6,453 bases of DNA from a virus (Duplodnaviria > Heunggongvirae > Uroviricota > Caudoviricetes): the IMG/VR virus record IMGVR_UViG_2713896899_000008, one strand, 5' to 3'. Under the pieces are notes generated by a model, which saw nothing but the letters and a program-made list of their open reading frames with translations, made no database searches and was not told the origin of the DNA. The position numbers and the translations under genes were made by a program. Each line of letters begins with the position of its first letter. Position 1 is the stretch's first letter. Positions 2,068 through 5,703 of this stretch are shown in pieces.

Positions 2068-2346
2068 ATGGCGCACGATACCAAATTACACAATTCTGAT
2101 GATTCTGCCGTCTTTGCCAGCAGGTGTGGACGGCGTTTTCACGCATTCAAATCGGACTGGTTCCAGCATCCCCCATGCACTGAAGAGCAGGCTGAATGGA
2201 TAATTCAGTGTTACCGCAGGCGCGGATACGAGGTTAAGAAAGCCCTTAGTCTCGACTACCGTCACTGGATAATCTCAGTCAGATTGCCTTACTCCGAACG
2301 CCCACCACGTGCGTCCCGCACTTTCCAGCAACGGATCTGGAGGTAA
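2068..2346 (+). CDS. Hypothetical small protein (92 aa), at the position rem occupies between hokD and ydfU in Qin
   Basis: First ATG in the open frame is 2068. The ORF-track start at 1987 is a TTG inside the terminator T-tract. Stop TAA 2344-2346 lies inside the SD spacer of the next gene. SD for 2068 is weak. Confidence 0.4.
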   Translation: MAHDTKLHNSDDSAVFASRCGRRFHAFKSDWFQHPPCTEEQAEWIIQCYRRRGYEVKKALSLDYRHWIISVRLPYSERPPRASRTFQQRIWR

Positions 2347-2347
2347 C

Positions 2348-3403
2348 GTGCGGGTATTACTTAGACCTGTTCTGGTGCCTGAGCTTGGGCTGGTGGTCCT
2401 TAAGCCGGGCCGTGAATCCATACAGATATTTCATAATCCTCGAGTGCTGGTGGAACCGGAACCAAAAAGCATGCGTAATCTGCCATCCGGAGTCGTTCCT
2501 GCCGTTGGCCAGCCGCTGGCGGAAGACAAAACATTGCCGCCGTTTTTTAGTAACGAACGGGTGATTCGTGCTGCTGGCGGCGTTGGCGCATTGTCTGACT
2601 GGCTATTACGTCATGTTACATCCTGCCAGTGGCCTAATGGCGATTACCATCACACTGAAACAGTCATTCACCGTTATGGTACCGGCGCAATGGTGTTGTG
2701 CTGGCACTGCGACAACCAACTGCGTGACCAGACATCGGAATCACTGGAGCTGCTTGCTCAACAAAATCTGACAGCATGGGTGATTGACGTCATCCGTCAC
2801 GCAATAAGCGGTACGCAGGAGCGGGAATTATCTTTGGCTGAATTATCCTGGTGGGCGCTCTGCAATCAGGTGGCGGATGCGCTACCTGAGTCAGTATTAC
2901 GTCGTTCGCTGGGGTTGCGTGCGGAAAAAATCCGCTCAGTGTACCGTGAAAGCGACATCGTACCGGGAGAGCAGACCGCCACCAGCATACTGAAGCAGCG
3001 CACAAAAAATCTTGCGCCGCTGCCTCACGCCCACCAGCAAAACCCGCCACAGGAAAAGACGGTGGTCAGCATTGCCGTTGATCCGGAGTCACCGGCTCAG
3101 TATCTCCAGCGCCAGAAACCACAACGGGAAGAGATGCCTGTATACACGCGCTGGGTAAAAACGCAGAAATGCATGACGTGCGGTAATCAGGCGGATGATC
3201 CGCATCACATCATTGGTCATGGACTGGGAGGAATGGGAACAAAGGCTGATGATTTGTTTGTTATTCCGCTGTGTCGCAAATGCCATAACGAACTACACGC
3301 CGGAGTAAAAGATTTTGAAGACAAACACGGCAGCCAGTTGTTGTTGCTGATTCGTTTTTTAATGCACGCGAGAAATTCGGGCGTCCTGAAGTGGAAAGCA
3401 TAA
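2348..3403 (+). CDS. DUF968-family protein (YdfU-like) with C-terminal HNH-like zinc-binding nuclease motif
   Basis: GTG 2348 preceded by GGAGG (2339-2343). C-terminus CMTCGNQADDPHHIIGHG...CRKCHNELH has the CxxC...HH...CxxCH spacing of an HNH-type motif. Start is less certain: in-frame GTG 2309 and ATG 2471 are alternatives. Confidence 0.65.
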   Translation: MRVLLRPVLVPELGLVVLKPGRESIQIFHNPRVLVEPEPKSMRNLPSGVVPAVGQPLAEDKTLPPFFSNERVIRAAGGVGALSDWLLRHVTSCQWPNGDYHHTETVIHRYGTGAMVLCWHCDNQLRDQTSESLELLAQQNLTAWVIDVIRHAISGTQERELSLAELSWWALCNQVADALPESVLRRSLGLRAEKIRSVYRESDIVPGEQTATSILKQRTKNLAPLPHAHQQNPPQEKTVVSIAVDPESPAQYLQRQKPQREEMPVYTRWVKTQKCMTCGNQADDPHHIIGHGLGGMGTKADDLFVIPLCRKCHNELHAGVKDFEDKHGSQLLLLIRFLMHARNSGVLKWKA

Positions 3404-3769
3404 ATGACTGAACATATAGAATTTGTTTTGCCTTACCCGCCGTCGGTGAACACCTACTGGCGCCGTCGTGGTGGCGTATATTTTGTATCAAAAGCCGGTG
3501 AGTGTTATCGCCGGGATGTGGCGCTTATTGTTCGCCAGAAGCGACTGAAATTAAATCTGTCCGGTAGGTTGGCAATCAGGATTATTGCAGAGCCACCGGA
3601 TAAGCGCCGCCGCGACCTGGACAATATCCTGAAAGCACCACTGGATGCGCTGACGCATGCCGGACTTCTTATAGACGACGAGCAGTTTGATGAAATCAAT
3701 ATTGTGCGCGGTCAGCTCGTTCCTGGTGGGCGGCTGGGGATAAAAATCACAGAACTGGAGTGCGCATGA
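3404..3769 (+). CDS. rusA: RusA-family Holliday junction resolvase (121 aa)
   Basis: ATG 3404 directly abuts the upstream stop (TAA 3401-3403). Product carries the RusA signature PPDKRRRDLDNILKAPLDALT and a C-terminal GGRL motif, closely paralleling E. coli RusA. Confidence 0.88.
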   Translation: MTEHIEFVLPYPPSVNTYWRRRGGVYFVSKAGECYRRDVALIVRQKRLKLNLSGRLAIRIIAEPPDKRRRDLDNILKAPLDALTHAGLLIDDEQFDEINIVRGQLVPGGRLGIKITELECA

Positions 3770-4455
3770 ATAGCCAGTATTTACAGTTTGTGCGTGAGCA
3801 GCTCATTATCGCCACCGCTGATTTGAGTGGGGCAACAAAAGGTCAGCTTGAAGCCTGGCAGGAGAATGCCATGTTCGATACAGGGCGTTACAGGCGTAAA
3901 AAAATCCGGTACCGGGATGAGGTGACTGGAAAAATGATAACGCGGGATAATCCACCAATCCCGGGAAAACAATCACTGGCGAAGGGGACGTCAATTCCTC
4001 TGGTCAGTCCGGTTGAGTTTTCGACATCATCGTGGCGGCGGGCTGTTCTGTCTCTTGAAGAACATCATAAAGCCTGGTTGTTGTGGTGTTACAGCGGGAA
4101 TATTTGTTGGGAATATCAGATCGCGATAACACAGTGGGCGTGGAATGAATTTAATACTCAATCCGGTACCAGAAAAATTGCAGGGAAAACGCAGGAACGC
4201 CTGAAAAAATTAATCTGGCTGGCGGCGCAGGCAGTAAAAGCAGAACTTTTTGGTGGGGAAGGTTATGAATACCAGGAGCTGGCATTACTGGCGGGAGTGA
4301 CAACTAAAAACTGGTCCAAAACATTTACTCGTCACTGGGTTGCAATGAAACACATTTTTTACCGACTGGATAGTGAGGCTTTATTGTTTGTAATGAGAAC
4401 ACGTTCAAAACAAAAGGTGGCATTTTCAAAGCAAAGTGTTGCAAAAGTAGATTGA
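3766..4455 (+). CDS. Putative late-gene antiterminator Q (QuuQ/phage-82-type, not the lambda zinc-finger type)
   Basis: ATG 3766 overlaps the rusA stop (ATGA). It sits immediately upstream of a promoter-terminator pair and the lysis cassette, the canonical Q position. Assignment is mainly positional; no zinc-finger motif. Confidence 0.55.
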   Translation: MNSQYLQFVREQLIIATADLSGATKGQLEAWQENAMFDTGRYRRKKIRYRDEVTGKMITRDNPPIPGKQSLAKGTSIPLVSPVEFSTSSWRRAVLSLEEHHKAWLLWCYSGNICWEYQIAITQWAWNEFNTQSGTRKIAGKTQERLKKLIWLAAQAVKAELFGGEGYEYQELALLAGVTTKNWSKTFTRHWVAMKHIFYRLDSEALLFVMRTRSKQKVAFSKQSVAKVD

Positions 4456-4467
4456 AAGGCATATATT
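4439..4467 (+). promoter_or_regulatory. PR'-like late promoter (TTGCAA, 17 nt spacer, TATATT)
   Basis: -35 TTGCAA (4439-4444) and -10 TATATT (4462-4467), overlapping the Q stop codon. Predicted start near 4474, about 50-70 nt upstream of the tR'-like terminator. Confidence 0.45.
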
Positions 4468-4521
4468 TCATGCAAATCTGATATTTTGCCGATTTTGTAC
4501 GTGATGGCAAAAGCAAACAAA

Positions 4522-4547
4522 ACCCGCCCACAAGCGGGTTTTTTTTG
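4522..4547 (+). terminator. tR'-like intrinsic terminator
   Basis: Stem ACCCGC (4522-4527) / GCGGGT (4534-4539), loop CCACAA, followed by an 8-T run ending at 4546. Confidence 0.75.
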
Positions 4548-4628
4548 TGCCACTTATCTCGGATAGACATGGTGAATGCGCTGGTGGAGGAAGTAAGGGT
4601 GATTTTTAATCAGGTGATTTTTGAATGC

Positions 4629-4657
4629 TTGCAACATTGATTTCGTAACGTTATTAT
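4629..4657 (+). promoter_or_regulatory. Sigma70-type promoter of the tRNA array (TTGCAA, 17 nt spacer, TATTAT)
   Basis: -35 at 4629-4634 and -10 at 4652-4657; the first tRNA starts at 4667, about 10 nt downstream. Confidence 0.5.
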
Positions 4658-4666
4658 CCTGCACCC

Positions 4667-4742
4667 GGCCCTTTAGCTCAGTGGTGAGAGCGAGCGACTC
4701 ATAATCGCCAGGTCGCTGGTTCAAATCCAGCAAGGGCCACCA
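4667..4742 (+). tRNA. tRNA with CAU anticodon, ileX/ileZ-like (tRNA-Ile2, lysidine type; Met not excluded by anticodon alone)
   Basis: 76 nt cloverleaf: acceptor GGCCCTT/AAGGGCC, D-stem GCTC/GAGC, anticodon loop CTCATAA, T-loop TTCAAAT, A73, encoded CCA. Overall sequence resembles E. coli ileX. Confidence 0.88.
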
Positions 4743-4743
4743 A

Positions 4744-4820
4744 CCGCCACTAGCTCATCAGGAAAGAGCGTCAACCCTTTAAGTTGAGTGTGCGAGGTTC
4801 GAGTCCCCGGTGGCGGTCCA
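4744..4820 (+). tRNA. Atypical tRNA, anticodon loop CCTTTAA (nominal anticodon UUU, Lys)
   Basis: 77 nt cloverleaf: acceptor CCGCCAC/GTGGCGG (C1:G72), D-stem GCTC/GAGC, anticodon stem TCAAC/GTTGA, T-arm CGAGG-TTCGAGT-CCCCG, U73, encoded CCA. C at position 33 and U73 are unusual for a Lys tRNA. Confidence 0.6.
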
Positions 4821-4822
4821 GT

Positions 4823-4898
<76 letters not shown>

Positions 4899-4901
4899 TA
4901 T

Positions 4902-4976
<75 letters not shown>

Positions 4977-5139: not shown

Positions 5140-5703
5140 TTAGTTTTTATTCGCCGTCCATTTACCACAAATTGGTCTGGAGAAGATTGCCAGAATGGCA
5201 ATAAAGGATATTTCAATTGAAACAGACCAGCATATATGTCCAATCAGTTCGCTCCAGAATTCATAGCCGTTTAGATTCCATAGCCACCCTCTTTCATGGC
5301 CGGGAAGATACGCGGGAAATCTGAAGCCCAGCGCGGGTATTAAAATACCATGCATGACTAATGTAATAAGAATTCCATATACAGCCCCATACCACATGCG
5401 GACTCGTGGAATAAAAACAGACAGGTATATGTATACAAAGGCAAAAATGAAACTAAAAAGCCAATGATAGAGCATAACAGCTCCGGGAATTGTTACTCCC
5501 TGGTAAATGTAATCCAGCGAGTGTGAATTTATTCCCAGAAAACCCAACCAGGCGTCGATATTCATTGCTGGTGGAGAAATTTCTCCGGCCATTCTTGGGG
5601 GCATGTTAGCTTCAGTTCCTGATTTCACCAGAGAGCTGATCGCGCCACCGACCAGTGTTGCCCAAAGTATGATTTTTAGATTTACGCTATTCCATTTACA
5701 CAT
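5140..5703 (-). CDS. DUF1440/YagU-family inner membrane protein (187 aa)
   Basis: Minus-strand ATG at 5703-5701 is preceded by GAGG at 6-nt spacing; stop is TAA (complement of 5140-5142). Product shares blocks with E. coli YagU as recalled (VKSGTEANMPPR, MWYG, MHGILIPALG, SELIGHICWSVSIEI). The 280-aa ORF-track version is rejected as an N-terminal extension. Confidence 0.62.
   Translation of the reverse strand: MCKWNSVNLKIILWATLVGGAISSLVKSGTEANMPPRMAGEISPPAMNIDAWLGFLGINSHSLDYIYQGVTIPGAVMLYHWLFSFIFAFVYIYLSVFIPRVRMWYGAVYGILITLVMHGILIPALGFRFPAYLPGHERGWLWNLNGYEFWSELIGHICWSVSIEISFIAILAIFSRPICGKWTANKN

Follow-up and report, generated by a model that had tools for sequence, protein, structure and literature searches.

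The stretch of DNA analysed here (the window; 6,453 nucleotides of the Caudoviricetes record IMGVR_UViG_2713896899_000008) is the late-regulatory region of a lambdoid Escherichia coli prophage, and at positions 4744-4820 of its plus strand it carries a 77-nucleotide cloverleaf tRNA gene with an encoded CCA, as can be read directly from the sequence. From 4744 to 4820 the gene reads, 5' to 3', CCGCCAC-TA-GCTC-ATCAGGAAA-GAGC-G-TCAAC-CCTTTAA-GTTGA-GTGTG-CGAGG-TTCGAGT-CCCCG-GTGGCGG-T-CCA, and it combines a UUU anticodon with a C at position 33 and a body of the argN family. The features on which the argument turns are the following.

4744..4820, plus strand: the tRNA under study, here called type B of the argN family (sequence, ARAGORN, Rfam, 88% identity to argN, cloverleaf in 22 variants)
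4771..4787, plus strand: anticodon arm UCAAC/GUUGA, with the pairs A30:U40 and U27:A43; positions 39-41 are G, U and U, and there is no CNG motif on either strand
4776..4782, plus strand: anticodon loop CCUUUAA, with C32 at 4776, C33 at 4777, the anticodon TTT at 4778-4780, A37 at 4781 and A38 at 4782

An earlier note on this DNA, made from the letters alone, had singled out the loop CCUUUAA with its C33 and UUU anticodon, the first pair C1:G72, the discriminator U73 (at 4817) and a well-formed cloverleaf, and all of these are borne out by the sequence, ARAGORN and Rfam. ARAGORN calls tRNA-Lys(ttt) with boundaries of exactly 4744-4820, and over its full length the Rfam tRNA model (RF00005) fits at 44.4 bits (E = 3.5e-07), above its gathering score of 29. 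Position 33, where tRNAs near-universally have U, was re-read and is C, not U, at 4777, so that the canonical uridine of the U-turn is missing. All stem pairs are standard but one, A51.C63 in the T stem, and the tertiary nucleotides T8 and A14, the D-loop GG, the T-loop GTTCGAGT and an anticodon loop of seven nucleotides are all present. Other registers of the loop (U34 taken as 'U33' with anticodon UUA, or a loop of 8-9 nucleotides) are ruled out by the perfect 5-bp stem UCAAC/GUUGA and by the 7-nucleotide loop found by both ARAGORN and Infernal. The opposite strand gave no tRNA match with ARAGORN and no match in Rfam, and a 59-residue open reading frame on the minus strand (4554-4733) which overlaps the tRNAs is taken as spurious. 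Minimum-free-energy folding was uninformative, failing to recover the cloverleaf even for lysT. The gene goes beyond a chance resemblance because it is one of four head-to-tail tRNAs spaced 1-3 nucleotides apart and because the same 77-mer occurs in hundreds of genomes.

The contrast that had been drawn with enterobacterial tRNA-Lys is correct, host lysT having G1:C72, A73 and the loop CUUUUAA. To lysT it is no more than about half identical in sequence the gene called type B, whose body, with U73 in place of A73, is unrelated to those of both lysT and the tRNA-Lys of phage T5. Alignment with argN, which had also been proposed, gives a very different picture: type B is approximately 88% identical to argN (AP012530) and occupies the same slot after an ileZ-type gene and downstream of the antiterminator gene Q, while the region upstream of the cassette, promoter included, is 90% identical to that of an argN-type cassette. 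The two tRNAs have in common C1:G72, U73, C16, A20, G39, the A51.C63 mismatch and the encoded CCA, and the argN of a Shiga-toxin phage record scores 43.0 bits in Rfam. C1:G72 and U73 are thus present as had been noticed, yet they are not anomalies of this gene alone; since both, together with the A51.C63 mismatch, are also found in argN, they are inherited family traits and not signs of decay. What distinguishes type B from argN is the change of U33 to C, the changes of C35 and G36 to U that turn UCG into UUU, the compensatory replacement of G30:C40 by A30:U40, and U27:A43 in place of U27.G43.

With TTT at 4778-4780, type B has the U34-U35-U36 of lysine where argN has the arginine anticodon UCG with its C35, and because the anticodon is not that of Arg it is filed here as a derived branch of the argN family, not as argN itself. 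In E. coli, arginyl-tRNA synthetase (ArgRS) uses A20 (the main determinant), C35, U/G36 and A/G73, while lysyl-tRNA synthetase (LysRS) uses the three anticodon bases and A73 (PMC9976931). Type B has kept A20 and lost C35, and its U73 agrees with neither rule; it would probably be charged mainly with Lys, probably inefficiently, with some charging by Arg possible. The earlier suggestion of a phage tRNA with altered decoding therefore stands in part: this is a phage tRNA, and its anticodon has gone from UCG (Arg) to UUU (Lys), but there is no indication of non-standard decoding. Two other members of the family, the argN of Stx2a_F349 (L002:1643-1719) and the PPompW copy (L003:2670-2745), have an acceptor G3.U70 pair (3' strand GUGGUGG). 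Such a pair is the hallmark of alanine identity, and it raises the question of how argN is actually charged in Stx phages.

Pattern scans of IMG/VR returned 126 copies of the family, which fall into two discrete classes only: type A, with UCG and U33 (about 33 copies), and type B, with UUU and C33 (about 93 copies, in 17 distinct sequences). Among type-B copies position 32 may be C, A or U, whereas position 33 is always C. No type B without C33 was found in the 2.9 million viral contigs scanned, all 38 of the 38 type-B copies from metagenomes have C33, and an exact search of 5426 complete E. coli genomes for the U33 version of the main type-B haplotype found none. Neither other anticodons nor intermediates combining U33 with UUU were found on the argN/type-B scaffold in IMG/VR, the metagenomes, a set of one genome per species or the E. 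coli genomes. The scan of one genome per species confines the family to Escherichia and Shigella, and 798 of the 5426 E. coli genomes (about 15%) carry a copy of at least 90% identity. The isolated phage vB_EcoM-606R7 has an identical, unannotated gene between Q and the lysis genes (L243:3185-3261), and PhiR47_1, likewise isolated, has a near-identical gene in the same position. Annotation is inconsistent, the identical gene being unannotated in some phage records, and no description of the type-B tRNA was found in the literature searched.

Aligning 22 family variants on the cloverleaf gives 95.8% paired cells; double compensatory changes occur at 7:66 and 30:40, and the one-sided changes in the acceptor and D stems are all C to U, giving G.U. 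The commonest type-B haplotype is undamaged and recurs without change in mosaic surroundings and in isolated phages. Within cassettes of the order Ile-Lys-Thr-Gly the four tRNAs are conserved, with nucleotide diversities (pi) of 0.004-0.017, type B being the highest, but the flanks are mosaic or non-homologous and their diversity is no fair neutral yardstick for the cassette. Derived lineages exist as well, with a one-base deletion in the D stem (PPompW phages of enterohaemorrhagic E. coli), with U8C and C11U, with A9G, or with broken T and acceptor stems (L031). The lineage thus decays in places, and the copy in the window represents its intact and most frequent form. That this copy might itself be a decaying pseudo-tRNA, as had been proposed, is not supported, in view of a score like that of argN (44.4 against 43.0 bits), of stem differences that are compensatory or preserve wobble pairing, and of the presence of C33 in every copy found.

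E. coli has a single lysine isoacceptor, tRNA-Lys(UUU). Type B carries the anticodon of a defence-targeted host tRNA, attacked by at least five kinds of nuclease: PrrC, RloC, AriB, P2-Old (as a secondary substrate) and a bacterial Schlafen. Host tRNA-Lys(UUU) is the target of AriB of the PARIS system, from which T5 tRNA-Lys rescues (PMC11464382, PMC12409363), and host tRNA-Lys is a secondary substrate of P2-Old, from which the tRNA-Thr of the lambdoid phage 21 rescues (PMC12445682). A phage tRNA-Lys rescues from PrrC170 while host tRNA-Lys restores only little (PMC11555353), and a bacterial Schlafen nuclease cuts tRNA-Lys (PMC13056530).

Comparison with the published determinants finds type B substituted at mapped positions for AriB, P2-Old and PrrC. 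AriB needs U36-A-A-U39-C40/A41, with the cut at the slash, together with U16; cleavage is lost with U39A and reduced with A41C or U16C (PMC11464382, PMC12409363). Type B has G39-U40-U41 and C16 at these positions. P2-Old substrates have paired CNG motifs, cleaved after C28 and C40, together with A37 (PMC12445682); argN presents CAG/CUG here and type B CAA/UUG, both CNG motifs having gone because of the swap of G30:C40 for A30:U40. PrrC cuts 3' of the canonical U33, as does RloC (PMC2610378), and the nucleotide at this scissile bond in type B is C33. Moreover C33 blocks synthesis of N6-threonylcarbamoyladenosine at position 37 (t6A37) by E. coli TsaBCDE in vitro, as shown on another tRNA (PMC8887486), and for PrrC t6A reportedly counts as a positive determinant (Bacusmo 2018, cited in PMC12409363). 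A scaffold lacking the nuclease determinants with a UUU anticodon placed on it would therefore make a Lys decoder that these nucleases should not recognise.

The surroundings of the gene bear on how it might be expressed. In order, the window holds hok/sok, a DUF968 protein, RusA, Q, a late-promoter-like site with a terminator, the four tRNAs and, on the other strand, a DUF1440/YagU gene; coordinates of several of these features are given below.

1576-1750: sok RNA (Rfam, 115.3 bits)
1688-1900: Hok open reading frame (Pfam HOK_GEF, 2.8e-21; its orthologue is named hokD by PGAP, the annotation pipeline of NCBI)
3760-4455, plus strand: antiterminator Q (Pfam Phage_antiter_Q, 1.3e-91)
4439..4550, plus strand: late-promoter-like site (4439-4467) and intrinsic terminator (stem 4519-4542 and T run)
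4629..4657, plus strand: candidate sigma-70 promoter TTGCAA-17-TATTAT, 9 nucleotides upstream of the cassette and followed by a G+C-rich discriminator CCTGCACCC (both within 4629-4666)
4667..4742, plus strand: first tRNA of the cassette, with CAU anticodon, counterpart of ileZ; tRNA-Ile according to PGAP, i.e. Ile2 after lysidine modification (ARAGORN, Rfam)
4823..4898, plus strand: tRNA-Thr(UGU), equal to host thrU except for G57A; keeps the AriB site UAAUC/A, U16 and the CNG pair
4902..4976, plus strand: tRNA-Gly(UCC), identical to host glyT

The TTGCAA-17-TATATT site overlaps the end of Q and is followed some 50 nucleotides on by a strong intrinsic terminator, the same layout (window 4439-4550) as the pR'/6S RNA/tR' leader of lambda that is the target of Q, and the tRNA cassette lies downstream of both, within a putative Q-antiterminated late transcript. 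Cassettes of the argN type and of the Lys type alike retain the hexamers of the candidate sigma-70 promoter, despite differences in the spacer and the upstream DNA, which suggests a dedicated tRNA-type promoter beside late read-through; through it the tRNAs may also be expressed in lysogens. A segment of 501 bp around the cassette is 100% identical to E. coli 377323_2f, where the PGAP annotation has genes for tRNA-Ile, -Lys, -Thr and -Gly after Q and before the lysis genes. Outside this segment the window matches that genome at 96.9% identity from 1373 onward and differs before that point. The Thr and Gly genes lie 3 nucleotides apart, without the tyrU that separates them in the host chromosome, and look like a capture from the host; the G57A of the Thr gene is rare among cassettes.

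Elsewhere in the window the hok/sok type I toxin-antitoxin module (1576-1900) is complete. The DUF968 (YdfU-like) protein (2309-3403) also matches a putative HNH nuclease domain (PF16784, 8.8e-08), and the DUF1440/YagU-family membrane protein (5140-5982, minus strand) stands between the tRNA cassette and the lysis genes, the 'moron' position held by stx in Stx phages.

Related cassettes show some further variety. In a rare lineage (L103, L137 and L154 in IMG/VR; 6 of the 5426 E. coli genomes, e.g. NZ_CP025842 1040162-1040237) the third slot holds a thrU-like gene with UUU, produced by G35U with A26G and keeping U33, so that the cassette has two different 'Lys' genes; the type-B copy of these cassettes is the C4U/U8C/C11U/C63U/U73G variant. 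As evidence of selection for Lys decoding such a second Lys(UUU) gene is real but, at 6 in 5426, too rare to carry more than little weight. In the same slot phage SerU-LTIIb carries a UCU (Arg) anticodon on a thrU-like body that has C16 (L200:701-776). Phage JLK-2012 has Asn(GUU), Thr(UGU) and Gly after Q (L201:615-848), and the anticodon stem of its Thr gene, which ARAGORN missed, is cut to 3 bp (ACUGA/UCAUC), the type of change reported as P2-Old-resistant.

We tentatively read type B, at a probability of roughly 0.45, as a Lys-decoding phage tRNA on a foreign argN scaffold that would serve as a nuclease-evading, counter-defence spare. Among the functions offered by the earlier note, defence evasion is the most plausible in the light of the published nuclease determinants. 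The tRNA would be made both from a tRNA-type promoter of its own and as part of the late transcript antiterminated by Q, processed to a 77-nucleotide tRNA with encoded CCA and charged mainly by LysRS through U34-U35-U36, and would read AAA and AAG. Once host tRNA-Lys had been destroyed, it might keep late phage translation going, as AriB and P2-Old would be expected not to recognise a tRNA from which every mapped determinant is absent, while C33 would alter the nucleotide whose 3' bond PrrC and RloC cut and would also block the t6A37 that PrrC favours. A stronger claim, which we hold to be doubtful, is that C33 is itself an adaptation, affording escape from PrrC and RloC through the scissile 33p34 bond and the lack of t6A37, and yielding, with an Arg-type body invisible to AriB and P2-Old, a multi-nuclease-proof Lys decoder, with which lysogens too would be equipped by virtue of the cassette's own promoter. 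A bolder variant has the retained A20 make the tRNA partly Arg-accepting, which could amount to a programmed Lys-to-Arg ambiguity.

Several points weigh against reading type B as a counter-defence spare. G39 and C16 are also present in argN and are by-products of the scaffold, not adaptations, and, there being no outgroup, the change between the UCG and UUU forms may have run in either direction. U73 is sub-optimal for LysRS, and a tRNA without t6A37 and the U-turn uridine should decode less efficiently. The published finding that the Kluyveromyces lactis gamma-toxin is unaffected by U33C means that C33 need not block cleavage, and AriB has further determinants that are as yet unmapped (PMC12409363). 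The neighbouring Thr(UGU) gene is host-like and keeps the AriB and Old sites, host thrU protected little against P2-Old (PMC12445682), and, taken together, the four genes give no impression of being tuned against AriB or Old. Approximately half of the genome copies are derived forms (with the D-stem deletion, or with U8C and C11U) which PGAP leaves unannotated, the form with the D-stem deletion scores below the Rfam threshold, and such derived or damaged copies suggest weak or episodic constraint. Lastly, the codon usage considered next, with its enrichment of ATA, ACA and GGA, fits ordinary codon supply for the other three tRNAs.

Codon supply is indeed the first alternative to be weighed, and for type B we judge it unlikely. 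It would make the gene an ordinary supply tRNA, giving extra Lys decoding for Lys-rich, A+T-rich phage genes, with C33 a tolerated hitch-hiker of no defence meaning. In 16 genes of a related prophage ATA, ACA and GGA occur at 16.1, 16.1 and 14.8 per 1000 codons, and AAA and AAG at 41.4 and 17.9. Averages in E. coli are about 4-5 for ATA, 7-8 for ACA, 8-9 for GGA, 34 for AAA and 10 for AAG, against which the first three codons are 2- to 3.5-fold enriched and Lys about 1.3-fold. Rare-codon supply is the classical reading of ileZ, argN and argO, and that the Thr and Gly genes copy host thrU and glyT points to dosage rather than evasion. As an account of the Ile2, Thr and Gly genes supply is fair, but for Lys it is poor: AAA and AAG are not rare codons, and the host has six tRNA-Lys genes, five of them seen in one locus. 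From a supply tRNA one would expect efficient acceptance of Lys and efficient decoding, whereas type B has U73, an Arg-type body and C33; where it stands in place of argN an Arg reader is lost, despite the enrichment of CGA/CGG and AGA/AGG as well; and a C33 that never reverts is left unexplained.

About equally improbable is that type B is a non-functional relic, an argN copy which lost its Arg identity by loop mutations and persists as a neutral passenger linked to useful neighbours. Its Rfam score of 44 bits is lower than the 65-74 bits of the neighbouring tRNAs of the cassette, but argN itself, with the same A51.C63 mismatch that might otherwise be counted as damage, reaches only 43 bits. 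The three substitutions within a 7-nucleotide loop, the near-invariant U33 among them, would suit a relic, as would the lineages with U8C, A9G, the D-stem deletion or broken T and acceptor stems (L031), the many copies left unannotated by PGAP, and a diversity slightly above that of the neighbouring tRNAs. On the other side, stem differences from argN are compensatory (7:66, 30:40) or result in G.U pairs, the commonest haplotype is intact and unchanged in mosaic contexts and isolated phages alike, and the anticodon arm is almost invariant, with neither back-mutations nor further loop decay seen.

Least probable, and by some way, is a non-translational or mis-translating role, either (a) as a decoy that would be bound by PrrC-type nucleases, be uncuttable after C33 and so inhibit them by competition, for which speak a loop that is Lys-like except at position 33, exactly the PrrC scissile bond, and the possibility raised for viral tRNAs of competitive inhibition of AriB (PMC12409363), though the absence of the AriB contacts makes an AriB decoy unlikely, or (b) through charging by ArgRS via A20, with Arg inserted at Lys codons, for which speak the retention of this main ArgRS determinant and a U73 that suits neither identity, though C35, a strong Arg determinant, is lost and all three anticodon bases match the Lys rule; in either case the encoded CCA and full cloverleaf suit an ordinary tRNA.

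Phage tRNAs as a means of counter-defence are established for virulent phages, as for T5 against PARIS and retron-Eco7, and the tRNA-Thr of phage 21 against P2-Old is the one known lambdoid case. If type B is a nuclease-evading spare, counter-defence would extend to tRNA-Lys in about 15% of sequenced E. coli, through temperate phages, and by a different evolutionary route, in which a new anticodon is placed on an unrelated scaffold rather than a Lys tRNA being mutated. Type B would also provide a natural test of whether a bacterial elongator tRNA can sacrifice U33, and gain by it, linking C33 through t6A37 to PrrC. Lysogens expressing it could weaken abortive infection based on tRNA-Lys, which would be relevant to phage therapy and to the conflict between lambdoid phages and P2- or P4-borne defences. 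If instead the gene is neutral, it makes a cautionary case of a 'tRNA-Lys' annotation resting on the anticodon alone.

The closest known relative is argN of the ileZ-argN-argO cassettes upstream of stx in 933W-type and Stx2 phages (e.g. AP012530), which has the same slot, a closely similar body and a similar Rfam score but differs from type B in UCG, U33, U27.G43 and a G30:C40 pair with both CNG motifs; in most cassettes type B is followed by the Thr and Gly genes, where argN cassettes have argO. An exchange of identities of this kind has a laboratory precedent in the 'alloacceptor shift' that Saks, Sampson and Abelson reportedly obtained in 1998 by switching an E. coli tRNA-Arg(UCU) to Thr(UGU). 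In both cases the body of one identity takes the anticodon of another and is presumably reassigned through anticodon recognition, and the thrU-like bodies with UUU or UCU found in the same cassette are of a similar kind. In contrast to the laboratory switch, type B involves two anticodon bases, position 33 and a stem pair, and it is widespread in nature.

Among tRNAs of known counter-defence function, the T5 tRNA-Lys(UUU) that neutralises PARIS (PMC11464382, PMC12409363) is, like type B, a phage-borne UUU tRNA that departs from host tRNA-Lys at the AriB determinants, with C16, a base other than U at 39 and one other than A at 41. It differs in its recognisable Lys scaffold with G1-G2-G3, A73 and U33, in belonging to a virulent phage and in that resistance and rescue have been demonstrated for it, while type B, known from its sequence, has an Arg-type scaffold with U73 and C33 and is found in temperate lambdoid phages. 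The tRNA-Thr(UGU) of phage 21 and the other phage tRNA-Thr that counter P2-Old (PMC12445682) share the lambdoid background, their resistance being ascribed to an altered CNG in the anticodon stem; they represent another isoacceptor, however, and in the window it is the Thr gene that keeps CNG and the Lys-reading gene that is without it. The classic natural C33 within an otherwise normal 7-nucleotide loop is that of the ANN-reading cytoplasmic initiator tRNA-Met of multicellular eukaryotes (PMC8887486), where it prevents the E. coli and yeast enzymes from forming t6A37 in vitro, although that tRNA is an initiator rather than an elongator and its own t6A machinery tolerates C33. Set beside these systems, an anticodon-switched, C33-bearing tRNA in temperate phages would appear to be a new variation on the theme of phage replacement tRNAs.

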